In this document: positions 17,922 through 64,000 of the stretch, piece after piece
Position numbering within the stretch: position 1 is the stretch's first letter
How the letters are laid out: the number at the start of each line of letters is the position of its first letter
Sequence record: PZ476263.1
DNA: 64,000 bases
Origin: a phage
Reading direction: 5' to 3' (one strand)
Program-made: the position numbers and the translations under genes
The notes under the pieces: generated by a model
The model's input: the letters and a program-made list of their open reading frames with translations, nothing else
Databases searched by the model: none
Told to the model about the DNA's origin: nothing

Positions 17922-18332
17922 TTAATCTTCCAGTGCTGCCAGTGCTGCCAGTTCCGCACGAAGTTCTTCTGGCGTTTTGTTCTTCAGTTCACGAAGTTCT
18001 GCATCTGCAAGCTGATCAATCAGGATCTGACGTTTACGCTTGATTTCTGCACGTTTTGCTGCTTCATCTTCTTCAGCTTTACGGATTTTAATTACCTCTT
18101 TAACAACGGCAAGAGCGAGATCCAGTTTCTTATCTTCTTGAGGTTTATCGTCCACAAAAGAAACTCCACCGAGGCTTTTAATTTCATCATCCAGGTCAAC
18201 AGCAATTCGGTTCAAAGAAAGTTCTGGACCACGAAGATGCAGTGTAAACAGGTCTTCAGTTGTGATATTGCCACGTACAGTTTTAAAACGCAGGTGCTGA
18301 CGAATAGCCTGTTCAAATACATTGTTACTCAT
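17922..18332 (-). CDS. hypothetical protein (coiled-coil)
   Basis: 136-aa ORF, charged helical C-terminus. Confidence 0.5.
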   Translation of the reverse strand: MSNNVFEQAIRQHLRFKTVRGNITTEDLFTLHLRGPELSLNRIAVDLDDEIKSLGGVSFVDDKPQEDKKLDLALAVVKEVIKIRKAEEDEAAKRAEIKRKRQILIDQLADAELRELKNKTPEELRAELAALAALED

Positions 18333-23651: not shown

Positions 23652-24875
23652 CACAATATGTTCGTTAAAGGTCGCAACTCTTTAACCGGGATCGTATACA
23701 CCTGAAGAAATATCTCTTCACACTTTCGAGTACGATTCCTGTTTCTTTTGCTACGTCACAGAAATCTTTCCCATCAAGTATCATTTTTGTTATCTCTAGT
23801 TCCAACTCTTCTTTAGTTTTGTTTCTTAACTTACTGACCCCAAAAGTTTTATCTTCGGCAAATTTACCGATAAAAAATCTAACTGTCGGTTTCTCTAAGT
23901 TTAGGATCTCACAAATCTTTAAAAGAGTCGCACCTTTCCACCATAAAGATCTTGCTTCTTCTGCAAGATGTTTCTTTTCTTCCACTTCAGAAACACATTT
24001 CCCCATGTCGAAAGTTTTTAAGTATCTTGCTGCAAAGTGCCTTTCTTGTCCAAGGTCCAGAGAGATTTTTGCATACGAATCACCTGCCAGATATCTTTTA
24101 TGGATGTGCAGATACATCTCTCCATAGTTATCAAAGCCGGATTGTTTTGCTCTATTATCTCTTTTTGCCATTGAACTTCTTTCAGATGCGATAGTTTTTA
24201 TGGACTCACCAAAAGAGTTTCCAATTGCATCTGGACTAGGACTCACCGCTGAAAAAGTATTATTAGTCATGTTATAGAATTCTGTATTGTTGGCTGCATC
24301 ATTCTCTAAAAGAACTTTTTCTTCGATTTCACGAAGGAGATCTCTTTTGTCTACAACTTCCAACACCTCAGCTACAAATCTATGACCACTTTTTAAATCC
24401 TTTTTCATATCTGGATTGGAAGAGGACCCAAGATAAGGTTTTCCACTCTTAATCGAGATTATTGTGGGGATTCCATCCACATCTATCACTTTGCATTCAC
24501 TTTTACTTCCGATATATTTGTTCGGGTATTCTTCTTTATCGATGTTTTTCAAGAGATAAACAATGTTCATGTATACGTCCTCCGCTGTATCTTTCAACAC
24601 AGTTCAGACTATATCTTTGACACACTAAAGGATAGCTGAACCAATCTACCCCTAATGTATCACAAACCACTTCGATTGTCTACGCTTACAATCTACGCCT
24701 TCCGGCTAGTCGTTGAACCTTCTACCTGTCTGGTAGCTTGGCTGCTGATTGCCCAATCCTTTAACTTTTTAAACCTTCGCTTTGTATTCCTACTCGCAGT
24801 GGTATAAAGGCTCTAAGGGGTTCCCAGCAATTCAATTTGTTTTATACTGAGGCAGCTTTAGTTTACCACAGTGTG
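23652..24875 (-). mobile_element. group I intron interrupting the DNA polymerase gene, carrying a GIY-YIG homing endonuclease ORF
   Basis: All four conserved core elements on - strand RNA: P AAUUGCUGGGAAC (rc of 24820-24832), Q AAUCAGCAGCC (rc of 24740-24750), R GUUCAACGACUAGCC (rc of 24704-24718), S AAGAUAUAGUCUGAAC (rc of 24602-24617); polymerase reading frame resumes after the inserted ORF; exact splice sites not resolved. Confidence 0.75.
23665..24600 (-). CDS. GIY-YIG family homing endonuclease (intron-encoded)
   Basis: 311 aa; N-terminal MNIVYLLKNI...NKYIGSKSE matches the GIY...YIG module; Lys-rich C-terminal half; RBS GGAGGA; located inside the intron downstream of core element S. Confidence 0.75.
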   Translation of the reverse strand: MLKDTAEDVYMNIVYLLKNIDKEEYPNKYIGSKSECKVIDVDGIPTIISIKSGKPYLGSSSNPDMKKDLKSGHRFVAEVLEVVDKRDLLREIEEKVLLENDAANNTEFYNMTNNTFSAVSPSPDAIGNSFGESIKTIASERSSMAKRDNRAKQSGFDNYGEMYLHIHKRYLAGDSYAKISLDLGQERHFAARYLKTFDMGKCVSEVEEKKHLAEEARSLWWKGATLLKICEILNLEKPTVRFFIGKFAEDKTFGVSKLRNKTKEELELEITKMILDGKDFCDVAKETGIVLESVKRYFFRCIRSRLKSCDL

Positions 24876-26594
24876 TTTACGACGGCCTGTATTCGTTATT
24901 CCAGTATAACGTGCAGGTAATTTACCGTCCACCGCAAGTCGAGGATGGTTTAACCAACCTGTATCTACTTTATCCTCTTTCAAAGGATCAAGAACACTTC
25001 GACGGTTACGAAGAGATAGCCATTTTACAATCTGCTTTGCCATATCACCATCGACTCGCTCAAGGTTAGGACAAAGGCCCTGCTGATCCTTAAGCTGCGG
25101 TGATGTTGGTAATGCTCTTGCCTTCTTCCTGAAGAACTTATACATCTTCTCTTTATCTTGCCACTGCTTACCACTGATACCTAAACTTTTCAGAATCAGA
25201 TCGCGATATTCAGTCTGGTCAAGATCATCAATGTATTGACGAACAATGATATCGACTTCGTTATCGGGACGTTGTTTCTTAAACTGGTCCTTCGTCGCAT
25301 CTTTGGTTCGCCACAATGTTGGGACCCAACCCGCATCACGAATAAGGAATTTTTTAACGTCATCCTGATTACCAATACGCATCGGAATCATAATATCCGG
25401 CATCTTTTGATCTTTGATATCCATCAATGCACGGGCCATGTCTTCCGGTGGCAAAGGTACAAGATTTTCCTTTTTCACATTTTGAGAACGAATAAATTCA
25501 GCCATTTTGGATTCATCTTCTACACCATGCTCTACACAATACTTAATTGCAGCAGATGTGAGTGAACCATCGCCCTTAAACGGCTTACTTGGAGCGCCTT
25601 TAAATTCAAGAGCTTCCCAATTCACATTGTAACCTAACTTCTCTAACCATTTCCAGCCCGTACCAGAAAGAGATCCATCTCCTTTAAACGGCTTAGACGG
25701 GAAAGTAGGCTGTGCTGACTTGGACATCTCTTTCTTCGGCAGCTTTGGTTCAACCTCTTCTTCAATTTCTTTCATCATCGTATCAATACGATCACGCAAA
25801 GCTAAACCTTTCTCCACGTCGAAAGTAACACCCTGAATTTCTTGCTCAACCATCAAATAGTCGGTAAGCATACCTCGACGCAAGGCATTCTTCCAATTGA
25901 TGAGCTTCATCTTCTTCGGATCTTTGTCCGATTCATCTTTGTACATGAAACGTTTATCATCCGGCATAGAGTCACATGAAATTTCTTTCATGAGGGCATC
26001 CCATACCATTTCGTTGATGATTACGTCTTCAATAATACGATCACAATATTTCCACAAAGGGAGTCCACGCCAATCTTCGATTGCTACCTTCTGGTTTGCT
26101 ACTCGCATACCCCAAGCTTCAAGTCCATGAGGGCCTACAGGCTTCATTTTACCTGTAACTGGGTTCTTTACCATCTCGGGACAACCGCGCGGCAGAGGGC
26201 GATCTGGATACAGTGTACGGGACATTGAAAGGGTATCGAAGATGTTAACTTGTTTACCATTGATAGTCCCCATGCAACCAGGGTCTGCAAACATATCGTA
26301 TGTTGTTCCAAACATCTTTTTAAACAGCTGTAAGTCATAGCCGAAGATATTATGGATAGCAACAGCTTTTGGTTCAGTCACAAACCACTCATTAAGTTCT
26401 TCCAACTTACGGATCTTAAAGTTCTTACCTTTGGATTGAATAAACTTAACCGCTTGCTCGTAGCCTTCGCGGTTCGGATCGATAAAAATATTCCAATTGT
26501 CCTTTTTGTACTCTTTAAAAAGAACACAGTGAACAAGATCAACTTCTGTCAACAGGCCGTTAGCCTCTGCATCTCCAATAAACAAACCTTTCAT
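24858..26594 (-). CDS. DNA polymerase, family A (T7 gp5-like), 5' exon: 3'-5' exonuclease domain plus N-terminal part of polymerase domain
   Basis: FIGDAEANGL (Exo I), GPHGLEAWGMRV and GWVPT match T7 gp5 landmarks as recalled; ends ...TGRRKHTVVN just before the conserved PNL(Q)xIP region; last codons and stop probably intron-encoded. Confidence 0.85.
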   Translation of the reverse strand: MKGLFIGDAEANGLLTEVDLVHCVLFKEYKKDNWNIFIDPNREGYEQAVKFIQSKGKNFKIRKLEELNEWFVTEPKAVAIHNIFGYDLQLFKKMFGTTYDMFADPGCMGTINGKQVNIFDTLSMSRTLYPDRPLPRGCPEMVKNPVTGKMKPVGPHGLEAWGMRVANQKVAIEDWRGLPLWKYCDRIIEDVIINEMVWDALMKEISCDSMPDDKRFMYKDESDKDPKKMKLINWKNALRRGMLTDYLMVEQEIQGVTFDVEKGLALRDRIDTMMKEIEEEVEPKLPKKEMSKSAQPTFPSKPFKGDGSLSGTGWKWLEKLGYNVNWEALEFKGAPSKPFKGDGSLTSAAIKYCVEHGVEDESKMAEFIRSQNVKKENLVPLPPEDMARALMDIKDQKMPDIMIPMRIGNQDDVKKFLIRDAGWVPTLWRTKDATKDQFKKQRPDNEVDIIVRQYIDDLDQTEYRDLILKSLGISGKQWQDKEKMYKFFRKKARALPTSPQLKDQQGLCPNLERVDGDMAKQIVKWLSLRNRRSVLDPLKEDKVDTGWLNHPRLAVDGKLPARYTGITNTGRRKHTVVN

Positions 26595-26678
26595 GTTCTA
26601 AAACCCTCCTCATCTTCTCTTTACCTTTGACCATATGACCGACTAACTATCTTACACATGATCAAAGAGAAAGACAAC

Positions 26679-26912
26679 TTAATCTTCAATCAATTCGAAT
26701 TCTGGAGCGAAGAGAACTATATTTTGGTCCTCTTCACCTGCCCAGATCCTTGCTGTACAAGGCTTGCCGCTTTTACAACAAAAGTAAACATCGGCCTCGT
26801 AGATATCTCCTACAGAAATTCCATAAGAAGAAAGACTAACGCCATTGGTATCGGGAATGTCGTTCTTTCTGATCTTTATCGAAATTTCTTTTTCTACATA
26901 TGTATTTCTCAA
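26679..26912 (-). CDS. hypothetical protein
   Basis: 77-aa ORF. Confidence 0.45.
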   Translation of the reverse strand: MRNTYVEKEISIKIRKNDIPDTNGVSLSSYGISVGDIYEADVYFCCKSGKPCTARIWAGEEDQNIVLFAPEFELIED

Positions 26913-27352
26913 CGTTCAATCTCCTTCTTTTTGGACATAGTGATGAAATAGTTCTGACCTTTCTTGCACTGGTTAAACCAGCCAACAAGATATCCATCTT
27001 CGATACGAATATCATACTCAGGGTATTCGCCCGTTCCACTGATTATATGGAAAAGTTTACCGAAGTCAATAAAGGTCAGATTATACTGAAAGTTTTCCTC
27101 GTCCTGGAAGATTGCAACAGCAGAGCTTCGGCCCTTTGACGTAGTAATAAACTTAAGTTTAAGTTCACGATGCTCATGATCGACAATGTTAACTTTTCTC
27201 TCAAGCAAGTAATTTGGGTCAACACGGGGCCAATGAGCTTTAAATCTTTCAGCGCCTTCTTCAGTAAAGGCATCACCATCGTAACCAGTAAACCATTTAC
27301 CATTATCTTTTACGTAGCCATGATAACTACGCTTACCTTTTACTTTAATCAT
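26909..27352 (-). CDS. hypothetical protein
   Basis: 147-aa ORF. Confidence 0.5.
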   Translation of the reverse strand: MIKVKGKRSYHGYVKDNGKWFTGYDGDAFTEEGAERFKAHWPRVDPNYLLERKVNIVDHEHRELKLKFITTSKGRSSAVAIFQDEENFQYNLTFIDFGKLFHIISGTGEYPEYDIRIEDGYLVGWFNQCKKGQNYFITMSKKKEIER

Positions 27353-27552
27353 TCCGTTATCTCCTCTTGTTCTGGATCTTCGATCATTGAGCTTTTAACT
27401 CTTGACCCGTATGTGGTCATTTCACCCGACCTACTCGAACCCTCAGGTGCTCTTATGACAGCATGACCTCTTAATAGTGTTCCTTCGTAGGTTTGTCCAA
27501 CTACAAAACCCATTTGGGAAACACCATTATCTCTATAACAAAGTAAATTCAT
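27349..27552 (-). CDS. small paralogue array member 11 (divergent)
   Basis: 67 aa; GQTYEG...IEDPEQEE; shares family scaffold. Confidence 0.55.
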   Translation of the reverse strand: MNLLCYRDNGVSQMGFVVGQTYEGTLLRGHAVIRAPEGSSRSGEMTTYGSRVKSSMIEDPEQEEITE

Positions 27553-27763
27553 CGTTCTCTATTTTAATTTCCTCTGTGATTTTATTTTCGGGATCAAGAA
27601 TAAGGCATGACTTTTTACACGGCACGGAATAAAACAACCCCCGCTCGTTTGGACAGATAATTAAAATATTTCGACCTCCCATATCTTTACCCTCGTAAGA
27701 CTCTCCTACCATTACCCCTTTGTCCCTCAGGAAACTATCCTCTTTTATGTAGATATACCTCAT
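27533..27763 (-). CDS. small paralogue array member 10
   Basis: 76 aa; MRYIYIKED...VGESYEG...ILDPE. Confidence 0.6.
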   Translation of the reverse strand: MRYIYIKEDSFLRDKGVMVGESYEGKDMGGRNILIICPNERGLFYSVPCKKSCLILDPENKITEEIKIENDEFTLL

Positions 27764-27960
27764 AGGCTGTTTTCCTCAGGGTCAAGAATAAAATGTTTAT
27801 CTTCGCAAAATCCCCAGTTATTTTCTCGTCCTAATGGATAGATACAGAGAATATTTTTCTTTATACTTGCATATTTCCCTTCATAAGTACAGCCTATTTC
27901 TACATGTTTCCAAGTAGGAACACTTAAGCATATGTATTTTTTAAATGTTTCTTCATTCAT
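27760..27960 (-). CDS. small paralogue array member 9
   Basis: About 66 aa from internal Met (track ORF to 27984); KKYICLS...IGCTYEG...LCIYPLG...ILDPEE. Confidence 0.6.
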   Translation of the reverse strand: MNEETFKKYICLSVPTWKHVEIGCTYEGKYASIKKNILCIYPLGRENNWGFCEDKHFILDPEENSL

Positions 27961-28156
27961 TTTGGTCCTCCCCCTCAGGGTCAATAACGAAGTGTATAGA
28001 ATTTAAATATCTTATCCCACCATCCAACCCTGTCGGGTAGATACAAAGATAGTGAAGCATTACGCTATCTTCACATCCATAATAAGTCGATCCTAAAGAA
28101 ACTTGACTGCTTGCTTTATCTGATAAGCAGATGTACTTTTTTAAATCCTGTTTCAT
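27953..28156 (-). CDS. small paralogue array member 8
   Basis: 67 aa; KKYICLSD...GSTYYG...LCIYPTG...VIDPEGE. Confidence 0.6.
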   Translation of the reverse strand: MKQDLKKYICLSDKASSQVSLGSTYYGCEDSVMLHYLCIYPTGLDGGIRYLNSIHFVIDPEGEDQNE

Positions 28157-28359
28157 TCATTAACCTCCTCAGGGTCGAGAATGAAATCATTAAAATCGCA
28201 AATTATCCAATCAGCAGACCAAGGGTGATGACCATCAGGGAAAATATATAGAACACCAGGTATCATTCCCCCTATAAAACCTGTATATGTCTCGCCTATT
28301 TTGACAAGATCCTCGTTACTTTTTATACAGAGGAACTTTTTAGTGTTTTTATCTCTCAT
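28153..28359 (-). CDS. small paralogue array member 7
   Basis: 68 aa; KKFLCIKS...IGETYTG...LYIFPDG...ILDPEE. Confidence 0.6.
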   Translation of the reverse strand: MRDKNTKKFLCIKSNEDLVKIGETYTGFIGGMIPGVLYIFPDGHHPWSADWIICDFNDFILDPEEVNE

Positions 28360-28565
28360 TTTTTAATATCCTCTGGTTCCTTTGCAAAACTCTTAGTGCC
28401 TATATATACCCATCCACTACCTATTCCATGAGGATATATACAAAGTGCATCCGACATTGTACTGTCGAATCCTGAATAAGTCTCCCCCAAATTAAGATTT
28501 GAGCATCCTTTGGTGCTTATGCATATGTAATTTTGAATATACATTTCAGGTTTTTGTTTCATTTT
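28356..28565 (-). CDS. small paralogue array member 6
   Basis: About 69 aa from internal Met (track ORF to 28622); NYICIS...LGETYSG...LCIYPHG. Confidence 0.55.
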   Translation of the reverse strand, partial: KMKQKPEMYIQNYICISTKGCSNLNLGETYSGFDSTMSDALCIYPHGIGSGWVYIGTKSFAKEPEDIKK

Positions 28566-28566
28566 A

Positions 28567-28764
28567 TTACTCCTCGTGCTCGGGGTCAAGAACGAAGTCC
28601 GCAGAATGATAGTACACACCATAAGTTTCTATCCCTTTCGGAAAAATATGAAGATAGTTGCTCATTAAAATATCTTTACGACCATAATAGGTCAATCCTT
28701 GAGAGATTGCTGTACCTGCCTCATCAGATATGCAAAGATACTTTTTAAATCCTATTTCACTCAT
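28567..28764 (-). CDS. small paralogue array member 5
   Basis: 65 aa; KKYLCISD...GLTYYG...LHIFPKG...VLDPEHEE. Confidence 0.6.
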   Translation of the reverse strand: MSEIGFKKYLCISDEAGTAISQGLTYYGRKDILMSNYLHIFPKGIETYGVYYHSADFVLDPEHEE

Positions 28765-28953
28765 TTAATCTCCTTCCGGATCAGCCGCTAAGCAAGATCC
28801 CTTACAAGGTGCTGACCTGAGCCAACCCTCATCGTTTAAATAGTAAATGATAATAACAGCATCTCCTATACCCTCAGTGCCTTCGTAAGATTCTCCTATT
28901 ATCAACGGGTAGTCTTCCAAAAGGCGATCTTCTTTTATGTAGATATATTTCAT
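28765..28953 (-). CDS. small paralogue array member 4
   Basis: 62 aa; MKYIYIKED...IGESYEG...AADPEGD. Confidence 0.6.
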   Translation of the reverse strand: MKYIYIKEDRLLEDYPLIIGESYEGTEGIGDAVIIIYYLNDEGWLRSAPCKGSCLAADPEGD

Positions 28954-29145
28954 TTATTCATCGCCTTCGGGATCTTCGACAAAATTATCTAACTTTACAG
29001 GCATAGATAAATTATCAGTCACCTTCACTGTGATGTAAATACTTTGAAAAGATTTAAATTTATTCTCTTCCCGATAAGTCTCGCCAACTACCAAGAGTTT
29101 AGAGTCCTTATTTTGTATGCATAGATAATTTGTCATTGTTTTCAC
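28954..29145 (-). CDS. small paralogue array member 3
   Basis: 63 aa; NYLCIQN...VGETYRE...VEDPEGDE. Confidence 0.6.
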   Translation of the reverse strand: MKTMTNYLCIQNKDSKLLVVGETYREENKFKSFQSIYITVKVTDNLSMPVKLDNFVEDPEGDE

Positions 29146-29345
29146 CTGTATTCAGGGTCTTCCGTGAAACTCTCCTTATTGAAAAATAGAGTAGTATCTT
29201 CATTTGGGAACGTTATAGGTATGTACTTACCCCGAGGAATACTATCGTTTATAAAGTAAGTCATACCTAATTGAAGTTTAGTGCTGTGTATGTTACTTAT
29301 ACATATAACCCCGACAAATCTTTCACCCTTCCTCTCCTTCTTCAT
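29142..29345 (-). CDS. small paralogue array member 2
   Basis: 67 aa; VGVICISN...LGMTYF...TEDPEYR. Confidence 0.55.
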   Translation of the reverse strand: MKKERKGERFVGVICISNIHSTKLQLGMTYFINDSIPRGKYIPITFPNEDTTLFFNKESFTEDPEYR

Positions 29346-29532
29346 ATATTTCAGGATCCTCTACAAAATCAGATTTCTTAAGCCATAGTTCCAAAGTATC
29401 ACTTACCCTTACGGATATCTGCCCACCAAATATTTTAGATGGTCTTACATAGTAAGTTTCTCCGATTACAAGTTTGTAAGTAGACCTATTGCTAACGCAG
29501 AGAAACTTAACATATTTTTGCTGTATACTCAT
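29323..29532 (-). CDS. small paralogue array member 1
   Basis: 69 aa; KFLCVSN...IGETYY...VEDPEIYEE. Confidence 0.55.
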   Translation of the reverse strand: MSIQQKYVKFLCVSNRSTYKLVIGETYYVRPSKIFGGQISVRVSDTLELWLKKSDFVEDPEIYEEGEEG

Positions 29533-29849
29533 GCAAGGCTTCGAACATACTCAAAGACTTTTTCATAATCTTCACCAAAGGAAACATAACCACTTCCCTT
29601 CGGATTGTCTAAACCATATGAATCGTCTTCAAATTTTTCCAGAATGATCCCGCCAGTGTATTCGATATACATCAAATCTCGTACTTTTGTCCACTTACCT
29701 ATACCAAAGGAAGCGAGATCTTTTTTGCAAATTTTAACATGCATATCTTTCTCTCCAGTATGATAGATATAAACATCCCCACTTTGGAGCTGTTCAACAA
29801 TGACCTCTGGAAAGATACCGCTTTGTGATTTACCGAATACCTTTTTCAT
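29529..29849 (-). CDS. hypothetical protein
   Basis: 106-aa ORF immediately upstream of the array. Confidence 0.5.
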   Translation of the reverse strand: MKKVFGKSQSGIFPEVIVEQLQSGDVYIYHTGEKDMHVKICKKDLASFGIGKWTKVRDLMYIEYTGGIILEKFEDDSYGLDNPKGSGYVSFGEDYEKVFEYVRSLA

Positions 29850-29863
29850 TTTACCCCCAATAA

Positions 29864-30544
29864 TTAGTGATTGAATTTAAAAACTGCCCGTGCAAAACCT
29901 TCTGGTGTTAGTGATCGCAATTGTTTTGTCCGATCAGACTTTCCACCTAAATACCGCCATCCCCAAAAACATCCAATATGTTCAACAGGTTTCTTTTCAG
30001 GCATTATAAACCCATTTCCTGACCAAAGGCAAGTCTTTTTAGTGTAGGCATTCTGTAAAGGCATCTGAGGATGATAAGAACCTTCGTGTGGTTCCAGATA
30101 ACCCCCATACTCATACGGATCAAAGTAATGGTCAGGTTTTCGCCATAGGGTACTCATCTTTCCTACAGGATTCTCCACAAACCAAGGACAATTAAATGTA
30201 TTCGCAATCCGCTCTACCATTTTTGCATTGATGATTGACTCCATCAACTGATCATTAGTCCTCTCATGTTTTGCACCCGCTACCGTTAAGTTTGTGCAAG
30301 AAGGGAAAGAGAAGATGATATCTGGCTTTGGGATACCCGCTTTGGCTGCAAAGGCTTCAAAATTATCATCAATCCAACAATTCACATACTCAATATTTGG
30401 ATGCTCTTTACGCATCTTGTACTGACCGTGATCCGCCGTATCGGCATTGAAGCAATAAACTTTCCAACCTGCCTTTGCATACTCATAGCCCATAAAGCCA
30501 CTACCGTCAAAAAGCGACCAAACCACTTTAAAAATATTAATCAT
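29864..30544 (-). CDS. putative DNA (cytosine-5)-methyltransferase-like protein (short)
   Basis: 226 aa; motif I-like LFDGSGFMG, motif IV-like FSFPSCTNL (PC dipeptide), motif VI-like FVENPVG (ENV); too short for a canonical enzyme with target-recognition domain. Confidence 0.5.
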   Translation of the reverse strand: MINIFKVVWSLFDGSGFMGYEYAKAGWKVYCFNADTADHGQYKMRKEHPNIEYVNCWIDDNFEAFAAKAGIPKPDIIFSFPSCTNLTVAGAKHERTNDQLMESIINAKMVERIANTFNCPWFVENPVGKMSTLWRKPDHYFDPYEYGGYLEPHEGSYHPQMPLQNAYTKKTCLWSGNGFIMPEKKPVEHIGCFWGWRYLGGKSDRTKQLRSLTPEGFARAVFKFNH

Positions 30545-30545
30545 A

Positions 30546-30875
30546 TTATCCTCGGATTGAAAGTTTCGCCAAATAAAATATAACCAGGTACAAGCCGTAT
30601 GCTAACGCAACCGAACTCAGTATTGTAATTGTGACAGGCAAGGCCCATAAAAGAACGATAATCATCATCGTTAAACCGAATGCTCCACCAAAACACTCTA
30701 AAAAAGCTTCACTTCCGAACTTAATGGGGTCCAAAGATTTCTTTATCTTGTCCCTTAGGAAAAGAAAAGACATAATAACAAATATTGCGATCCCCAGCAA
30801 GACCCATTGGGTAACAGAGGTGTTTTGTCGGATAAAATGATACCATGCATCATAAATTACTGTCAAGTTTTCCAT
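30546..30875 (-). CDS. membrane protein
   Basis: 109 aa, three hydrophobic segments. Confidence 0.5.
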   Translation of the reverse strand: MENLTVIYDAWYHFIRQNTSVTQWVLLGIAIFVIMSFLFLRDKIKKSLDPIKFGSEAFLECFGGAFGLTMMIIVLLWALPVTITILSSVALAYGLYLVIFYLAKLSIRG

Positions 30876-31240
30876 TAGGTCCTCACTGATAGTTTAACAA
30901 GGATTTCAATAATTTTTACAAGTACAAAGATTAAGACTGCAAAAATAGACACAAAAATAATCAAAGGTAAAAGGTATATTGTCCCTGTGATCAATGCTGA
31001 AATAAGTAAGGAAAAGAAAATCTCCGGTACACCATCCCAACACCACAGTTGCTTACTCTTTTTGTATTGATACCTTAAAATACCAAATAAAGATACAATT
31101 GAAAAAGATATGAAAATGATAAATGGTGTTTCCTTCGAGATCAAGAAACTTATTACATCATTAAACCAAAATATTACGACTCTCTGTGCGAATTCAATCA
31201 TTTCTTTTTCCTCTCTTTCTTCTCTGGTTTTACATCGCAA
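30875..31240 (-). CDS. membrane protein
   Basis: 121 aa, several hydrophobic segments; ATGA overlap with downstream gene. Confidence 0.5.
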   Translation of the reverse strand: MRCKTREEREEKEMIEFAQRVVIFWFNDVISFLISKETPFIIFISFSIVSLFGILRYQYKKSKQLWCWDGVPEIFFSLLISALITGTIYLLPLIIFVSIFAVLIFVLVKIIEILVKLSVRT

Positions 31241-31407
31241 ATTTTGGCTTCATATGCAATTGGTGTTACATAGCGCCAAGTCTTTTTGTAATGGTCGAGG
31301 AGTTCTCTCATATTCTCCTCGTCCTTTGCCCAACCACAAACGTGAGGTATTTCATCAACAGACATTTGACACTTAATATACCAACGCGTTTCTGTGTTTT
31401 TATTCAT
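31198..31407 (-). CDS. hypothetical protein
   Basis: Likely starts at internal Met (MNKNTETRWY); track ORF extends to 31479. Confidence 0.4.
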   Translation of the reverse strand: MNKNTETRWYIKCQMSVDEIPHVCGWAKDEENMRELLDHYKKTWRYVTPIAYEAKICDVKPEKKERKKK

Positions 31408-31640
31408 GATTTTTTCACCAGTTCGTAAATCTCGAAGTCGGATTTCTTTACACACGCTCGCCAACCTGAAGATAAGCAACGAGCAACAACAAAGTCGTCT
31501 GGTAAAGAGGGTGTATTGTTTTCAACCATCAACACATCGCCTTTGAAAACATTAATTTCTATGCTTGTATTATCCCAACATACGTAAGAATAATTATCAT
31601 TTTTGGCAACTAAGAACATTTTAATATTTTTAATTGTCAT
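31404..31640 (-). CDS. hypothetical protein
   Basis: 78-aa ORF. Confidence 0.45.
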   Translation of the reverse strand: MTIKNIKMFLVAKNDNYSYVCWDNTSIEINVFKGDVLMVENNTPSLPDDFVVARCLSSGWRACVKKSDFEIYELVKKS

Positions 31641-31921
31641 TTTACCAACCCCAATTCATATGCCGAGTATAAATCATTTCCTTCGTACCCGTCAACAATA
31701 ATTTTCACATTTTTATCGCGACGCTCATCAACAACCATTCGAGATCCTGCGCCGGATTTAACAAGGTAGGTGTCCTTATTAACCCTTACCGTTTGTGTTC
31801 TTCTTGCAGAAACAATCTCAACCTGTGTATTTTTAGGAACAAATTTAACAATCTCCACCATAGTACCTTCGGTCCCCATTTCCATAAGGTCATACTTAAT
31901 AGCTTTCATTAATGTAGTCAT
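31637..31921 (-). CDS. hypothetical protein
   Basis: 94-aa ORF. Confidence 0.5.
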   Translation of the reverse strand: MTTLMKAIKYDLMEMGTEGTMVEIVKFVPKNTQVEIVSARRTQTVRVNKDTYLVKSGAGSRMVVDERRDKNVKIIVDGYEGNDLYSAYELGLVK

Positions 31922-32091
31922 TGTGCATTCTCCTCTGAAGGGCCTTCTTTAGCCTTTGCAATTGCGTTAATAGTGATTATATAGCTATCTTGTAAGTTTT
32001 CAAGCTCTTTCTTAGTGTCAAAAGGATACCATCCATCTTTAGACATCTTGGCTATGGTTTCGTAATCATCAAATTTCACATCTGAAGGCAT
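31921..32091 (-). CDS. hypothetical small protein (not in ORF track, <60 aa)
   Basis: 57-aa ORF read from reverse complement; TAATG and ATGA overlaps couple it to both neighbours. Confidence 0.4.
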
Positions 32092-32468
32092 TAGCATAAT
32101 TTTACCTCTTTGTTCAGAAAGTCTTTGGCAATAAGACGGATAATTTCTTCTGCGTTTTCAGAATTTACCACACCATAGTTCTTGAAAGGTAAAATGGTGT
32201 CTTCACAAACTTCTTCGAAGAATTTAAATTCGTCATCACATATTTCAAAATATTCGTCACCATTCTCCAGGCAAGTTAACTTTTTTCCATTTATACACAA
32301 AGCCTCTTCAATAAAATAAACCTCATTGAAAAGTCCAATTTTCGTAGGACAAAACACACCACCATTAGAATTAAGTAAATTTACCATTGGGGTGTTGGAA
32401 CGAGGATTATCCTCGACAAACTCAGAGACACGAGATTCTTTTAATTTGTACCATTTACCTAATTCCAT
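32091..32468 (-). CDS. hypothetical protein
   Basis: 125-aa ORF. Confidence 0.5.
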   Translation of the reverse strand: MELGKWYKLKESRVSEFVEDNPRSNTPMVNLLNSNGGVFCPTKIGLFNEVYFIEEALCINGKKLTCLENGDEYFEICDDEFKFFEEVCEDTILPFKNYGVVNSENAEEIIRLIAKDFLNKEVKLC

Positions 32469-32533
32469 CTTCTTTTCCTCTTTTATTGTGTTGATGAGAT
32501 AAGTATAAGGATATTTTAGGTGGCTGTCAATAG

Positions 32534-32562
32534 AAAAACCACCCCGAAGGGTGGTTTATTTT
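32534..32562. terminator. bidirectional rho-independent terminator downstream of primase-helicase
   Basis: CCACCC-cgaa-GGGTGG hairpin flanked by A-run and T-run. Confidence 0.7.
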
Positions 32563-32570
32563 GAAAAATA

Positions 32571-34613
32571 TCAGAAAGGTGCTTCCTCGTCGAAATCCAC
32601 ATCTTCAACTTCCGGTACGTCTGGAATGTTTGCTGCCGCTTCGACAATATCTTGTTGCTCCCAAATCTCTTCCATAGGTTGTCCAAGTTCTTCCATTACT
32701 TCCTTCATCTCTTGCTTCTGAGCTTCAAGGAAGTTTTCATCCGGATCTGGAATGTCCTCTTCTGTGATATCCGAACGGGTAAGGTCCGAATTACTTTCCG
32801 ACAGAGGCTGGATTTCAGCTGCCTTTGGCTTAAAGTCTGGAGAACGATGATCATCTTCTGGATGTGCTGCATACCATTCCCGAAGAGTCTCATATGGACT
32901 GTCCAAAAAGCCTTCTGGCGGCTCAAGGTAATCACCCGTGTCAATGTCATAGAACACAGGGAATTTACCAGCACGACCGTGTTTACGGTCATCCAGAATA
33001 ACAAACCATGAAGTATTTCGTTGCTTCATAGGTAGTTCTGGATCTTTGTTACGCTCAATACCCCACATGTAATACGTGTTACGCATCATTGCACGACTAC
33101 CAGCAAACTGAGCTGATTGAACTTGACCACCAAACTCGTGTGGCTTACCTGCATCTGGCTTATTGAGGTGGCAGAAGCAATAATAAGTAAAACCAAGTTC
33201 TTTAGCCAGCTTGGAGATCTCATCAGAGAACCGCTCAAGTTCCTGGTTAGCCTCTGACGCACTCATACCCTGAACAAGTCGAGTGATCGGGTCAATAAAG
33301 ATATCTTCACACCCTTCTACGATTACAGCATGGCGGATAGCACCTTTCAGTTCATCCCATACTGCACGACCATAGTTGTTATAGTAAATTACACTATCAC
33401 CAACTTCATCTGTCGCCTTGATCAGCTCTTCCTGCTTAAAGTATCCACGTTGACCTTCAAAAACTTCATTGCCCCAAATGTCACGGTAAGTCCCGTCAGG
33501 TTGCGGAAGCATTACTTTTTCTGCGTTAACGAAGTCTTTATGATATCGCTTACCTGCAATCTTCTTACAGGTGATTTCGTTCTCTTCTTCAAACTTAAAT
33601 ACCGCTGCTTTTGCTTTCTCTACGCCAGTGATATGTTCAACCAGCTGGTTAAGCAATTCACTCTTACCCATTTTTACACCCGCACCAATGAAGTAACCTT
33701 CACCGAGGCGACGGCCCAAAGTAAGTTTTGTCAGTGTAGGCCAAGGGAATTTTTTACCCAGCTTAGGGATTTCATGAGCCTTTTCACGGAATTGTGAATA
33801 AGTTGAAAAACCGTCCGGTACATATTCCTTTGGTTTCATTGCTGCCCAAAACAACTGATCAGCAAGACCTTTGTTATACATGTCACAAGGGTCCATATCT
33901 TCAGGGATATCGACCACCTTCATTTGAGGAATAACAGAGTAAACTGCGGCAACCGCATCTTTACCCTTCATAATTCCTTTTGCTTTTTCTGCTTCAGTTG
34001 CCCGATCCGCATCGAAAGCTACAATAATCTCATCAAACTTACTTAACAGCTTATAGTTGTTCTTTTGTGACAAGTTCTGAACAGCGTTAGAAGTTCCGTT
34101 AGAGATGGAAACAACTGTGAAGTTCGGTTTACGTGTCGCACCATCTTTGGGTTTATACTTTTCACGAAGAACTTGCCAAAGAACGGCAGCATCGTATTCA
34201 CCCTCAGTGATAAAGATCATTCGTTTGGAGGATTTATTAGCACCTTCAAGACCAAACAGATCACAAGCTACCGATTGAAAACCGATAGTTGTAAAATGAC
34301 CTTTCTGCTGTTTTGGGATTGTAAGATCACGCTTCTTAAAACCTACAATCTTCCCATCCAAAGTATACGGAAAGTAATGTGCTTCTGCCGAAAGACCGTC
34401 TTTTGCGGAAAGCTTAGTACGAATACCAAAACGCTCTGCTGTCTTTTCATCGATACCACGCTCAGGGATTGCTTTGAACGGATAAGTCATTACATCTGCA
34501 ACTGTTTCTTCTACTCGCGAAGAACTGCTACCAAAACTACGTTGAACACTGGCCTTTGGATTCTTATGCCCAAATTTGTAACCGCCAAACAAACTTTCTC
34601 CGATGGTACTCAT
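32571..34613 (-). CDS. DNA primase-helicase (T7 gp4-like)
   Basis: 680 aa; TOPRIM-like motifs IFITEGEYDAAV and IIVAFDAD; Walker A GAGVKMGKSEL; acidic C-terminus ending ...DVDFDEEAPF; no N-terminal Cys zinc ribbon visible. Confidence 0.85.
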   Translation of the reverse strand: MSTIGESLFGGYKFGHKNPKASVQRSFGSSSSRVEETVADVMTYPFKAIPERGIDEKTAERFGIRTKLSAKDGLSAEAHYFPYTLDGKIVGFKKRDLTIPKQQKGHFTTIGFQSVACDLFGLEGANKSSKRMIFITEGEYDAAVLWQVLREKYKPKDGATRKPNFTVVSISNGTSNAVQNLSQKNNYKLLSKFDEIIVAFDADRATEAEKAKGIMKGKDAVAAVYSVIPQMKVVDIPEDMDPCDMYNKGLADQLFWAAMKPKEYVPDGFSTYSQFREKAHEIPKLGKKFPWPTLTKLTLGRRLGEGYFIGAGVKMGKSELLNQLVEHITGVEKAKAAVFKFEEENEITCKKIAGKRYHKDFVNAEKVMLPQPDGTYRDIWGNEVFEGQRGYFKQEELIKATDEVGDSVIYYNNYGRAVWDELKGAIRHAVIVEGCEDIFIDPITRLVQGMSASEANQELERFSDEISKLAKELGFTYYCFCHLNKPDAGKPHEFGGQVQSAQFAGSRAMMRNTYYMWGIERNKDPELPMKQRNTSWFVILDDRKHGRAGKFPVFYDIDTGDYLEPPEGFLDSPYETLREWYAAHPEDDHRSPDFKPKAAEIQPLSESNSDLTRSDITEEDIPDPDENFLEAQKQEMKEVMEELGQPMEEIWEQQDIVEAAANIPDVPEVEDVDFDEEAPF

Positions 34614-56455: not shown

Positions 56456-56458
56456 TAT

Positions 56459-56486
56459 TGACACTGTATTGGAATAGTGTAGAATT
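56459..56486 (+). promoter_or_regulatory. sigma70-like promoter driving ncRNA-like element copy 2
   Basis: TTGACA 56459-56464, 16 nt, TAGAAT 56481-56486. Confidence 0.55.
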
Positions 56487-56492
56487 TATTAC

Positions 56493-56569
56493 ATCAGGAC
56501 GGGGAACAAAAACAAATAGTTCCCCGTTAAGTAGCCCAGGAGTAAGGCAGACGAAAAACTCCCCTGATA
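56493..56569 (+). ncRNA. candidate small structured RNA, copy 2
   Basis: Same element as 53795-53869; perfect ACGGGGAA/TTCCCCGT stem; loop differs while stems are conserved. Confidence 0.45.
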
Positions 56570-56576
56570 AAAAGAT

Positions 56577-60291: not shown

Positions 60292-60480
60292 ATCCTAACG
60301 GCCTTGAATTTAAAGCTATTCCCAACCTTGCCGGATTGCGTAACAAATCGGCACGAAATCAAAGAAGATTGGAGAAAAAGAAGAATAATAGAAAATAATT
60401 GTTGACACCCTTCCTTAAATCCTTTAAATTGCTCCACATAGGGCGGCAATAGTGCCGCTCACTAATCTGGAGTTATCACC

Positions 60481-60882
60481 ATGACTTTTACAATCCTTTC
60501 TTATGCTGACGTAGCAAACATCGCTAAAACTTTTGGACCTCGGGCACTGGAATATGCCGTATCTAATGGTAATCTGACAAAGGAGCAATGCTACCTGATC
60601 GGCAGTTGTAAACGTTGGGCGGTATCCCGTAACATCGAGATTGAAAACGTTAATGATGGGAATATCGAGTACACTGTTGATGCCGTATTCCAATCTATTG
60701 ACCTGGGCGGTATCTATAATACCAATCTTAACGATGTTCGTATTATCCGCACTGGCTTCGGTGCTTATGATGTATCTATCCGTGAAGCTATGGACAAGGG
60801 ATACATTAGCAAGGATCAATTAGCTTACATCATGCAACAAACTAAGGAACGTAACGAAGTAAAGGCTATCTTAGGCTTGTAA
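60481..60882 (+). CDS. hypothetical protein
   Basis: 133-aa ORF downstream of promoter TTGACA plus leader hairpin GCGGCA...TGCCGC. Confidence 0.55.
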   Translation: MTFTILSYADVANIAKTFGPRALEYAVSNGNLTKEQCYLIGSCKRWAVSRNIEIENVNDGNIEYTVDAVFQSIDLGGIYNTNLNDVRIIRTGFGAYDVSIREAMDKGYISKDQLAYIMQQTKERNEVKAILGL

Positions 60883-60900
60883 TCCGGTAGTCAGCTTACA

Positions 60901-60926
60901 AGGCCCCTTCATGGGGCCTTTCTTTT
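60901..60926 (+). terminator. rho-independent terminator
   Basis: AGGCCCC-ttcat-GGGGCCT hairpin followed by TTCTTTT. Confidence 0.7.
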
Positions 60927-60969
60927 ATGTGTTGAGCAAAAATAAATTAAAAATAATTCAAAAAGACTA

Positions 60970-60997
60970 TTGACTCAACCGCAAAAAAGGGTAGAAT
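60970..60997 (+). promoter_or_regulatory. sigma70-like promoter driving long ORF-free leader
   Basis: TTGACT 60970-60975, 16 nt, TAGAAT 60992-60997. Confidence 0.55.
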
Positions 60998-61003
60998 GTA
61001 TTA

Positions 61004-61287
61004 CATCAAGACGATGAAGCAGCGATGTAAAGTAGTCGCCCTGGTGAGTAAGTTCGGTGAAGGTTAATCGACCTAAGTAACCGAAAGTTAGTAAGGATAA
61101 GGACTCTGGGATTGAATACGTCATAGACGGGCTACACTATCCAGTCAGTGAAGAGGTCGGCTGAGCAATGACCCTACGGCTTTACGAAGACCGTGCTATC
61201 CTGTGACTAACAACAAAAACAGTAAAAAGCAGTAAGAAACACAAAGTAAAGAATTTTAATCAAATCACAAAATAAAAGGTTGACATC
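61004..61287 (+). ncRNA. candidate structured RNA / long 5' leader (about 280 nt, ORF-free)
   Basis: Promoter-proximal region with no ORF over 17 codons; many local stem-forming segments; the TTGACA at 61279 is too close to the ATG to serve the downstream gene, so 61288 is probably transcribed through this leader. Confidence 0.4.
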
Positions 61288-61527
61288 ATGCAAACGATCA
61301 TTACTAAGTTTTTGGCCCCTACTAATACCCGTTGCGCTCGCATCATTGCAAAATGCTGGTTGACAAATATCACGATTGCTTATCCAGTAGCGGAGATCAA
61401 CGAAGCCCACAAAATTGCAGCTCAGCAATTGATCGTTAAGTTAAAGATGACGACGGGCAATGATTGGAATATCGTTGCAAGTGGTGAAACACCGGACGGA
61501 TCAGGTTATGCATTTATCATCAAATAA
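61288..61527 (+). CDS. hypothetical small protein
   Basis: 79 aa, RBS AAAGG. Confidence 0.5.
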   Translation: MQTIITKFLAPTNTRCARIIAKCWLTNITIAYPVAEINEAHKIAAQQLIVKLKMTTGNDWNIVASGETPDGSGYAFIIK

Positions 61528-61609
61528 GTGTTGACAAGCTAGGTAATAAATAGTAAATTGATGTTCTGGCGGCGCAACGGTGCACGGCATAGGTTAAGGA
61601 CCAATTATC

Positions 61610-61996: not shown

Positions 61997-62079
61997 AAGT
62001 ATTGACACAGATCGGCATTGTGCTATGATTTACCACGTAGGGCGGCAATATCGCCGCCTCAATCAAAGGAAGTAAAACC

Positions 62080-62874: not shown

Positions 62875-62883
62875 TCATTGCAA

Positions 62884-62907
62884 AGGCCCTTCGGGGCCTT
62901 TCTTGTT
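62884..62907 (+). terminator. rho-independent terminator ending the small-gene cluster
   Basis: AGGCCC-ttcg-GGGCCT hairpin followed by TTCTTGTT. Confidence 0.7.
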
Positions 62908-63362: not shown

Positions 63363-64000
63363 ATTCACTTTATTTGAATATGTAATCAATAGGGTTGCTT
63401 ATACCATAGATGATTAGTAGTGTCAACAGGTAATTATTGTTCGCAAAGAGATAGAGATTGTTTATTCTTTGTCCACAATGAAGGTCGTAAGGGCACTTAT
63501 AGCATGGTTTTCTTTACCTTTGCTTGATAAAGCACGCTTCTCTCTTCTTGTCAAATAAAAATTTATTTTTTCTTTCTTGCCAGAATATCGAGGGTGACTT
63601 GCCCCAATGTTGGGAGGGCCGTCGGTCGTGGAATCTATCAAGTTGGAATGATTCGACCTGCAACCTTTATTGTTGGGATAGTCACGTCTGTAATCGTCCC
63701 AAACCAGGCGGGGCGCGGAGTAGGGGAGTAGTCGGGTCGTCAGTCAATCCATTTTGGCAACTGGTCCGGCTTAGTGCGTATAAGTTGTATTATGTTAAAT
63801 GCAGATCGAAATCGGTATTCTAAATCAGATTCAGAAGTCAATAGAAATCTTTAACTTTATTGTTGGAAGGGCACAACATTTTTCTTGACAAGTCGAATCA
63901 AAGATGTATTGTGGATTGAAAATAAATGAAGATAATGCTTGACTTCTTGGATATTTTGAAAACATCGGACCCCCCTCCCCCTCCCCCGAGAGCGGCGTGC

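Follow-up and report, generated by a model that had tools for sequence, protein, structure and literature searches.

Transcription unit and leader

In the window, by which we mean the whole stretch of phage DNA that was analysed (64,000 nucleotides, sequence record PZ476263.1), a short gene starting at 61288 is preceded by a sigma70-type promoter and by a long leader that holds a conserved structured RNA. The features of the locus are as follows.

60900-60920, + strand: intrinsic terminator of the upstream gene, strong, AAGGCCCC-TTCAT-GGGGCCTT followed by a T-run
60970-60997, + strand: sigma70-type promoter, TTGACT-16-TAGAAT, score 10/12
61008-61213, + strand: structured RNA element, 206 nt
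61214-61287, + strand: spacer, 74 nt, A-rich (57% A, 26% GC or 0.257), with three AGUAA(A/G) words
61275-61279, + strand: Shine-Dalgarno sequence AAAGG of gene 61288, inside the spacer
61288-61527, + strand: downstream gene, 79 aa, PHROG 3199, function unknown

The promoter that the first-pass annotation had recognized at 60970-60997 is indeed present, just 3' of the strong terminator, and this terminator sets apart the transcription unit that begins at 60970. The promoter would place the transcription start near 61004. Together with the first transcribed words, GTATTACATCAAGACG, it is found again at another promoter of the window (56458-56501), and the same combination of promoter and initial words is also present in Asteriusvirus phages. 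A scan of the window gave no further promoter-like or terminator-like site in 60997-61531, and transcription of gene 61288 through the leader, as had been proposed, is the simplest reading; the gene is presumably translated from the same transcript as the element. The TTGACA that had been noted close to the ATG at 61288 was found at 61280-61285 instead of 61279, which leaves 2 nt and not 4 nt before the start codon. The operon ends at 62882-62901, and according to the window scan several of the genes 3' of the element carry promoters of their own.

The region of about 280 nt between promoter and gene had been described as free of ORFs longer than 17 codons and as richer in GC than its surroundings. 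Essentially it is ORF-free, but the longest ORF on the same strand has 23 codons (60996-61067). The ATG of this ORF overlaps the -10 box and is missing from the Kuravirus-type copies that were read (XT32); the remaining ORFs in the stretch are short or lie on the minus strand. No micro-ORF is conserved among the homologues, in which substitutions track base-pairing and not codons. The GC content of 61000-61213 (0.465-0.471) exceeds that of the flanks (0.365-0.405) and thus that of the neighbouring intergenic DNA, but not that of the neighbouring coding sequence (0.42-0.48). The structured part covers 206 nt (61008-61213) and not all of the 280 nt. The spacer that follows it shows no conservation in other members and contains no boxA.

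Blastn searches against 50,697 phage records showed that parts of the region have different relatives. The gene upstream of the element has its matches in Asteriusvirus jumbo phages and the gene downstream in Vequintavirinae-like phages of about 140 kb, while 61016-61206 is 72-78% identical to unannotated DNA from phages of very different kinds.

Fold of the leader RNA

The fold was modelled on an alignment of 13 full-length members made with MAFFT (alignment A3) and comprises 44 pairs in 10 helices. Standard pairs are formed in 97.4% of the cells of this alignment (44 pairs, 13 members), against 31-42% if the 3' partners are slid by 1-3 columns, and compensatory double changes occur in 27 of the 44 pairs. 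None of 500 shuffles reached the observed covariation score, and the result was unchanged when 22 sequences aligned to the model were used. Further covariation lies outside what MAFFT captured, both in the arm named PC (ACGG/CCGU, ACGUAU/AUACGU, CUAG/CUAG, CCAUA/UAUGG, CUCA/UGAG) and at the tip of the arm named PA (CGUC/GACG, CUGG/CUGG, CUGG/CCAG). The short inverted repeats that had been noticed in the window are real and correspond to helices of the conserved fold, as was established base by base for all coordinates of the anatomy given below, in window numbering. The search of the window with the covariance model (R1) returned a single copy of the element, which matches the model over its full length with 184.6 bits (E = 7e-56).

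Pairs of the G-U and U-G type are frequent in the fold and would be A-C mismatches on the opposite strand. The tolerance of these wobbles implies that only the + strand forms the fold, and in every phage this is the strand that is transcribed. The folding energy of the single sequence is not unusual when compared with shuffled sequence (z = +0.27), and the case for a structure rests on the comparison among members and not on thermodynamics. On the strength of covariation we assign 61008-61213 as a conserved structured RNA on the transcribed strand, which supports the earlier proposal of a candidate ncRNA or regulatory leader.

The unremarkable folding energy is what one would expect if there were no functional RNA at all, and the region either happened by chance to be poor in ORFs or held a signal at the DNA level, for instance an origin or packaging site. 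The probability of this is negligible, as covariation is overwhelming and the G-U pairs are strand-specific. Furthermore, the orientation of the element always matches transcription, and its position is tied to promoters and not to replication or packaging landmarks. Covariation, strand specificity and promoter-tied position together exclude both chance and a DNA-level signal.

The predicted anatomy of the element is as follows.

61010-61040, + strand: hairpin H1, variable lower stem, internal loop, 3-bp upper stem and GCGA (GNRA) tetraloop
61043-61052, + strand: single-stranded linker GGUGAGUAAG, conserved
61053-61085, + strand: hairpin H2, 6-bp lower stem, GAA/AAGUA internal loop, 4-bp upper stem and a loop with conserved UAAUC
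61087-61211, + strand: 3' domain, a closing helix in two parts around three arms (PA, PB, PC)
61087-61092 with 61206-61211 and 61094-61099 with 61197-61202, + strand: closing helix
61102-61146, + strand: arm PA, with the invariant words UAAGGACUC
61152-61175, + strand: arm PB, with a conserved AAU in the loop
61176-61194, + strand: arm PC, with a CUU-UACG-AAG tip

The internal loop of H1 is lined by an invariant GAAG on the 5' side and an invariant AAGUAG on the 3' side. Its upper stem changes from GCA/UGC to GUG/CAC in the Klebsiella phages, in which the GNRA loop is kept. In the linker GUAAG is invariant or nearly so throughout the family, and in the lower stem of H2 all six pairs covary. 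The GAA/AGUA loops of the two hairpins carry the sequence signature of bulged-G modules and may be of the sarcin-ricin or loop E kind.

Three resemblances were rejected. A sigma70 pause element that might be read into the conserved linker (TAAGNT, which requires A at position 2 and T at position 6) does not recur consistently among the members or in the short leaders. For a canonical 11-nt tetraloop receptor in H2, suggested by the word CCUAAG, the opposite strand is unfit and the word itself varies (GCCAAG, CUCAAG). A likeness to the GTPase centre of 23S rRNA and to loop E of 5S rRNA that was seen by eye consists of local words and is not homology; on an E. coli rrn operon (16S, 23S, 5S, leader and spacer) R1 scored 5.2 bits at best.

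Distribution of the element

The element was found in about 30 distinct phages in total. The window copy sits in a Vequintavirinae-like myovirus, and blastn with this copy matched podophages of the Kuravirus group with genomes of 75-77 kb (XT32, XT18, XT73, MN03, SDYTW1 and the partial record of FS2B), which infect E. coli, as well as the microvirus NC29, which has a single-stranded DNA genome of 6.3 kb. Weaker matches were obtained with Pseudomonas phage MR4 and Ralstonia phage Reminis. The use of divergent members as seeds added the Erwinia phages Era103, phiEa1H, phiEa100, S2 and Tapenade, eight Klebsiella Autographiviridae and Pantoea phage Nifs112, so that the hosts of SP6-like and other Autographiviridae carriers include Erwinia, Klebsiella, Pantoea, Pseudomonas and Ralstonia.

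Pattern scans contributed a few more members on contigs from IMG/VR and metagenomes. The abundance in IMG/VR is low, with fewer than 10 contigs found by exact-pattern scans; two further patterns gave 60 loci, only 4 of which are new real members, and the 15 IMG/VR matches to a pattern from the 3' domain (AAGTA-N19-TAAGGACTCNG) were all due to chance. Blastn found no bacterial copy in 5,426 E. coli genomes and no match on plasmids. When the genomes of 185,579 bacterial and archaeal species (one per species) were scanned with the pattern, 9 matches appeared that are chance-like and mostly lie in coding-like sequence. Each of them scored at most 15 bits with R1, and AAGGACTC occurred in none of the 9. 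In these searches the family is confined to phages, and it is small and well defined. Its carriers include phages cultured on E. coli hosts, namely Bas89 and Bas86 of the BASEL collection and NC29, which together with the small size and clear definition of the family makes it immediately testable.

Placement behind host promoters

In most members with a clear promoter the GAAG box begins 14-18 nt after the sigma70 -10 hexamer; in SU7, PAS59 and Bas89 this distance is 27-28 nt, and weak promoter calls (7/12) were obtained for XT32/MN03 and Reminis/KL01. H1 starts within the first few transcribed nucleotides of members with a clear call. The placement behind a sigma70 promoter is constant across four unrelated lineages, and this context tells more about the element than any other feature. 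In Era103, the first 4 kb of the + strand contain no strong sigma70 match other than the promoter of this copy. The copy of the Kuravirus phage PAS59, at position 657 (the terminal repeat occupies 1-275), lies at the start of the first transcription unit from the left end of the genome, as does that of K1-ULIP33, where the element lies at 552 and the first gene at 796.

A scan for terminator-like sites 3' of the Era103 and XT32 copies found none. In the window, the promoter of an independent sRNA gene is present, but 61213-61531 holds no terminator-like site. As no terminator follows the window, Era103 and XT32 copies, the RNA is better described as a leader than as a self-contained sRNA gene. 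The genes behind it are unrelated: a 79-aa protein here and a 163-aa protein in Kuravirus, both of unknown function, the scaffolding protein gpD in NC29, and assorted small early genes in Autographiviridae. The distance from the element to the start codon ranges from about 30 to more than 150 nt, and the intervening sequence is unrelated or contains boxA. No phage protein co-occurs with the element, which must also work in a microvirus that depends entirely on host transcription. The partner is therefore expected to be a host component, and one that must be common to Enterobacterales, Pseudomonas and Ralstonia.

A 5' UTR location and a fitting size of about 190 nt are also what a riboswitch-like sensor would have, in which a small molecule or ion bound by the 3' junction domain would tune expression of the downstream early genes. 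The multi-helix junction, with covarying helices and invariant junction and loop bases (UAAGGACUC, GUCAGUGAAG, AAU), agrees with this, and in Kuravirus direct reading showed a UUCACAA between the Shine-Dalgarno sequence and the AUG that complements the UUGUGAA of the closing helix. Such a complement was not found in the window, in NC29 or in Autographiviridae, however. There is no consistent expression platform and no terminator, the variable distance to the start codon and the functionally unrelated downstream genes do not suit a sensor, Rfam holds no related aptamer, and the 5' domain persists in phages without the junction domain. We regard a riboswitch as distinctly unlikely.

The Autographiviridae offer a further context. 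Behind every full-length copy read in this group stands an rrn-type boxA with the sequence (G)CTCTTTAACAA, or TTCTTTAACAA in Era103, which lies 1-28 nt 3' of the element, and 122 nt in MR4. This boxA is absent from the window, Kuravirus and NC29 copies. In the window, the boxA consensus (GCTCTTTAACAA or CGCTCTTA) does not occur in 60998-61287, and the sole match with at most one mismatch is at 18095. Phage SP6 lacks the element, yet has three copies of boxA in its early region, with a simple hairpin between the promoter and the first of them. The presence of boxA in SP6 indicates that boxA is a trait of that phage lineage, and the association therefore carries little weight; as an argument about function it is weakened accordingly. 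What the sequences do suggest is that in SP6-like phages the element fills the upstream hairpin slot, the 'boxB position', inside a leader that appears devoted to elongation control.

Gain, loss and the 5' domain

The microvirus NC29 provides the clearest case of gain. Its close relatives WA45, NC35, NC3, alpha3 and others have a C-D intergenic leader of 43 nt, which in NC29 is replaced by a stretch of 233 nt with the element. NC29 and these relatives share the PD-type promoter that lies within the end of gene C. Since the promoter is shared with relatives that lack the element, the RNA was inserted precisely behind a pre-existing promoter for host polymerase. It brought no promoter of its own, in a genome that is under tight size constraint. 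This insertion is a natural gain-of-function experiment, for which WA45 and NC35 are isogenic-like phages without the RNA. A comparable difference is found with A7_1, a sequenced relative of the window phage, in which the orthologue of gene 61288 lies behind a 76-nt intergenic region and no element is present. Whatever its mechanism, the element provides an unambiguous example of horizontal transfer of a non-coding RNA from one phage realm to another.

The 5' domain, H1 and H2 (61010-61085, about 75 nt), is retained alone in SU7, PAS59, Bas86 and the UKE3 and BS3 phages. Comparison with L060 showed that contig L007/L045 has lost the 3' domain and boxA via a deletion between CTCAAG repeats. In contig L007 and the SU7-type phages the lone 5' domain follows the promoter immediately. 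The constant core of the element is thus its pair of 5' hairpins.

Retention of the 5' domain alone bears on the possibility that the RNA cleaves itself as a ribozyme or serves as a dedicated processing signal, so that the leader is trimmed to a defined mRNA 5' end. The complex conserved junction fold and its invariant unpaired bases would be in keeping with catalysis. Phages often carry small ribozymes, and an mRNA that begins with a 5' OH would be protected. No known class matches even at permissive thresholds, though, and a cleavage site is unmarked; with some phages keeping only the 5' domain, we consider such a function very unlikely.

The element is always 5'-terminal, and in NC29 it heads the mRNA of the most abundant structural proteins, as one might expect of an mRNA stabilizer or translation enhancer, that is, a compact 5' structure that blocks 5'-end-dependent decay by RppH or RNase E or recruits ribosomes and in this way increases the amount of downstream protein. 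An invariant UAAGGA resembles a Shine-Dalgarno sequence, which would suit the enhancer, but it is largely base-paired within helix PA. For stabilization a simple 5' hairpin suffices, and some 200 nt with dozens of invariant unpaired positions, maintained from Ralstonia to E. coli, are in excess of this. Either role appears improbable.

The pattern of gain and loss can also be read in terms of a trans-acting RNA, with the leader being cut off or accumulating and then titrating a host factor, as an immediate-early decoy made before any phage protein. Candidate targets may include Rho, RNase E, Hfq or ProQ, a ribosomal protein or a defence protein. Movement among unrelated phages and absence from close relatives resemble the behaviour of accessory counter-defence genes, and in Kuravirus and SP6-like phages the element is the first RNA from the entering genome end. 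The many invariant unpaired nucleotides and the GAA/AGUA loops, which are like platforms for proteins, would fit as well. Against a decoy, the 3' end is not defined by a terminator or a recognizable processing site, and the NC29 element took over an mRNA leader instead of forming a separate gene. Moreover, the host range of Enterobacterales, Pseudomonas and Ralstonia favours a partner in the core machinery over a sporadic defence system. A trans-acting decoy is in our judgement unlikely, and the RNA may act either as a leader in cis or as a free ncRNA in trans.

Proposed mode of action

The element is probably a portable module that acts on the host gene-expression machinery. As a tentative proposal, held with less than even confidence and drawn by analogy, we suggest a cis-acting leader that modifies the host elongation complex in a way similar to the put RNAs of phage HK022, to which it is not homologous. 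The region would be the 5' leader of a transcript made by host RNA polymerase, of which the first 205 nt or so would fold co-transcriptionally into two hairpins with GAA/AGUA loops and then into a junction closed by a long-range helix. The folded RNA would act in cis on the very transcription complex that made it, so that the host polymerase would withstand pausing, Rho or terminators or would be licensed by other means to elongate into the downstream genes. In the manner of the two-hairpin put RNAs, this action would need no phage protein. The element could thus be a plug-in that works behind any sigma70 promoter, which would explain its spread among unrelated phages.

A cis-acting elongation element fits the strictly promoter-proximal position, the finding that no terminator follows, the insertion into leaders that already existed and the retained two-hairpin core of about 75 nt; we infer every step that involves RNA polymerase, Rho or termination. 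Several observations speak against it. A need for antitermination is not evident in the window, in which no internal terminator is seen before 62882-62901 and several promoters occur downstream. The large 3' domain with its many invariant unpaired bases exceeds the needs of known antiterminator RNAs and would also fit an RNA that binds a ligand or a protein. Finally, a 5'-terminal position is equally expected for a processed RNA that acts in trans.

If the cis-acting elongation element is real and its target is host RNA polymerase or Rho, it would join put as only the second type of phage RNA known to modify elongation by itself, and would be the first such RNA in lytic phages of several families. 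It would also have a bearing on the way in which podoviruses ensure that the incoming genome receives its first, host-driven transcription. Being compact and apparently functional behind sigma70 promoters of any kind in Enterobacterales, Pseudomonas and Ralstonia, the element could become a part for synthetic biology.

Comparison with known RNAs and systems

A covariance-model scan for known RNA families, which the first-pass annotation had suggested as a check, assigned no Rfam 15 family to the element. At gathering thresholds, the only hit in the whole window was a group I intron at 24585-24952, and in a permissive scan of 60800-61400 the best overlapping hits reached 9-16 bits, compared with gathering scores of 65-95. 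Rfam likewise gave nothing on the element in Era103, MR4, XT32, NC29 and K1-ULIP33, ARAGORN found no tRNA or tmRNA genes in the window, and full-text searches of the literature returned no description of the element RNA. The element is new as a sequence family with respect to Rfam 15 and the literature, a comparison that leaves the 10,006 candidates of PMC10690425 to one side. With the RNAs of that survey, listed as candidate structured RNAs in viral metagenomes, it shares that it is a phage RNA motif with covariation upstream of genes; it differs in being rare in IMG/VR (fewer than 10 contigs) and may have escaped discovery based on clustering.

Riboswitch aptamers resemble the element in that it is a multi-helix junction in a 5' UTR with conserved junction nucleotides and a length like that of the lysine and cobalamin aptamers. 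Unlike these, it has no Rfam aptamer match, no conserved expression platform and no known ligand, and is followed by unrelated genes.

The leaders of rrn operons and the lambda nut sites (boxB-boxA-boxC) are closer in layout, as the Autographiviridae element lies between a promoter and a perfect or near-perfect rrn-type boxA, in the slot that is held by boxB in rrn and by a plain hairpin in SP6. H1 also ends in a GNRA tetraloop, as do boxB-like hairpins. In contrast to boxB, the element is ten times larger, its window, Kuravirus and NC29 copies have no boxA, and SP6 shows that boxA is separable from it.

The closest parallel is with put of HK022. The putL RNA consists of about 70 nt with two stem-loops just downstream of PL, and put acts alone on RNA polymerase (PMC9378689). 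The 5' domain of the element, of about 75 nt, similarly forms two covarying stem-loops adjacent to a promoter, and these have non-Watson-Crick internal loops. Both RNAs are encoded by phages and stand first in early operons that host sigma70 RNA polymerase transcribes, and for neither is a dedicated phage protein partner in evidence. They differ in that the element adds a junction domain of about 125 nt and occurs in lytic myo-, podo- and microviruses, whereas put belongs to lambdoid prophages, and there is no detectable homology. A search with R1, with filters off, of HK022 24000-34000 gave 5.9 bits at best (E = 0.53) and homology to put was rejected; this stretch should include PL and PR upstream of the O gene (30029), put itself being unannotated in the record.

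It is possible, though we think it rather doubtful, that the mechanism of the element is one not yet described. A similarly low probability attaches to a new portable, protein-independent class of RNA, an 'RNA moron' that would spread horizontally because only host components are needed, and which would either reprogramme host elongation unlike put and nut or represent a new ribozyme or ligand-sensing class. As a kind, the element is most likely a variant of the promoter-proximal phage leader RNAs.

Leaders and other elements of the window

Within the phage DNA the large structured leader (61008-61213, + strand) is accompanied by the following features:

24585-24952, - strand: group I intron
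56458-56575, + strand: second promoter (TTGACA-16-TAGAAT) with its leader
60436-60462 and 62036-62060, + strand: two copies of a GC-rich hairpin motif (GTAGGGCGGCAATAGTGCCGC and GTAGGGCGGCAATATCGCCGCC)
61214-61287, + strand: spacer between the large element and gene 61288, 57% A
62882-62901: strong terminator

The leader of ca. 80 nt that follows the 56458 promoter has a very stable predicted fold (-26 kcal/mol, z = -4.8) with the shape of a small junction. Its initial transcribed words (TTATTACATCAGGACG) are nearly identical to those behind the promoter of the large element, and the words AAGUAG and AGUAAG are common to this leader, the large element and a short leader of Asteriusvirus PBECO4 (L061 1546-1600). 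The 56458-56575 leader may be a smaller relative of the large element, or it may represent a distinct leader class. The GC-rich hairpins lie directly 3' of TTGACA promoters at 60402 and 62002; this motif represents another, distinct short leader that recurs in the gene cluster.

The spacer preceding gene 61288 contains three AGUAA(A/G) words (CAGUAAAAAG, CAGUAAGAAA and AAGUAAAGAA) spaced by about 11-14 nt, and these resemble (ARN)n tracts. Conservation of the spacer was absent in the other phages and contigs carrying the element. Past the terminator, up to position 64000, ca. 1.1 kb of short overlapping ORFs on both strands lacks a convincing gene. The group I intron matched the full-length Rfam model RF00028 with 73.8 bits, and was the sole Rfam match at the gathering threshold in the entire window.

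Variation and surroundings of the element in other phages

A clean deletion between CTCAAG repeats separates two closely related metagenomic Autographiviridae-like contigs (L045/L007 versus L060). In L045/L007 the 3' domain and the boxA antitermination word are lost while the promoter, hairpin H1 and most of hairpin H2 are retained. Two other copies have the following surroundings:

Phage XT32, 2400-2950: non-coding region of ca. 930 nt upstream of the Kuravirus element copy
Era103, 822-1280: HNH endonuclease gene immediately upstream of the element's promoter

The XT32 region is flanked by divergent gene clusters and harbors many copies of a C-rich word (TTCCCCCGT or TACCCGT), and these repeats may be sites where a protein binds, or may mark an origin. 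The Era103 HNH endonuclease gene and the element's promoter overlap at the end of the gene, and a gene of this type was absent at that position from the other members examined.

BoxA sequences in SP6

Phage SP6, which does not carry the element, has three rrn-type boxA sequences at positions 656, 926 and 1536 (two GCTCTTTAACAA, one GATCTTTAACAA). Similar words, GCTAGTGT and GCTTAGTGT, occur downstream of the copies at 656 and 926. Each copy precedes an early gene. This arrangement suggests that SP6-like phages have Nus-factor antitermination as an integral part of the early region transcribed by the host polymerase.
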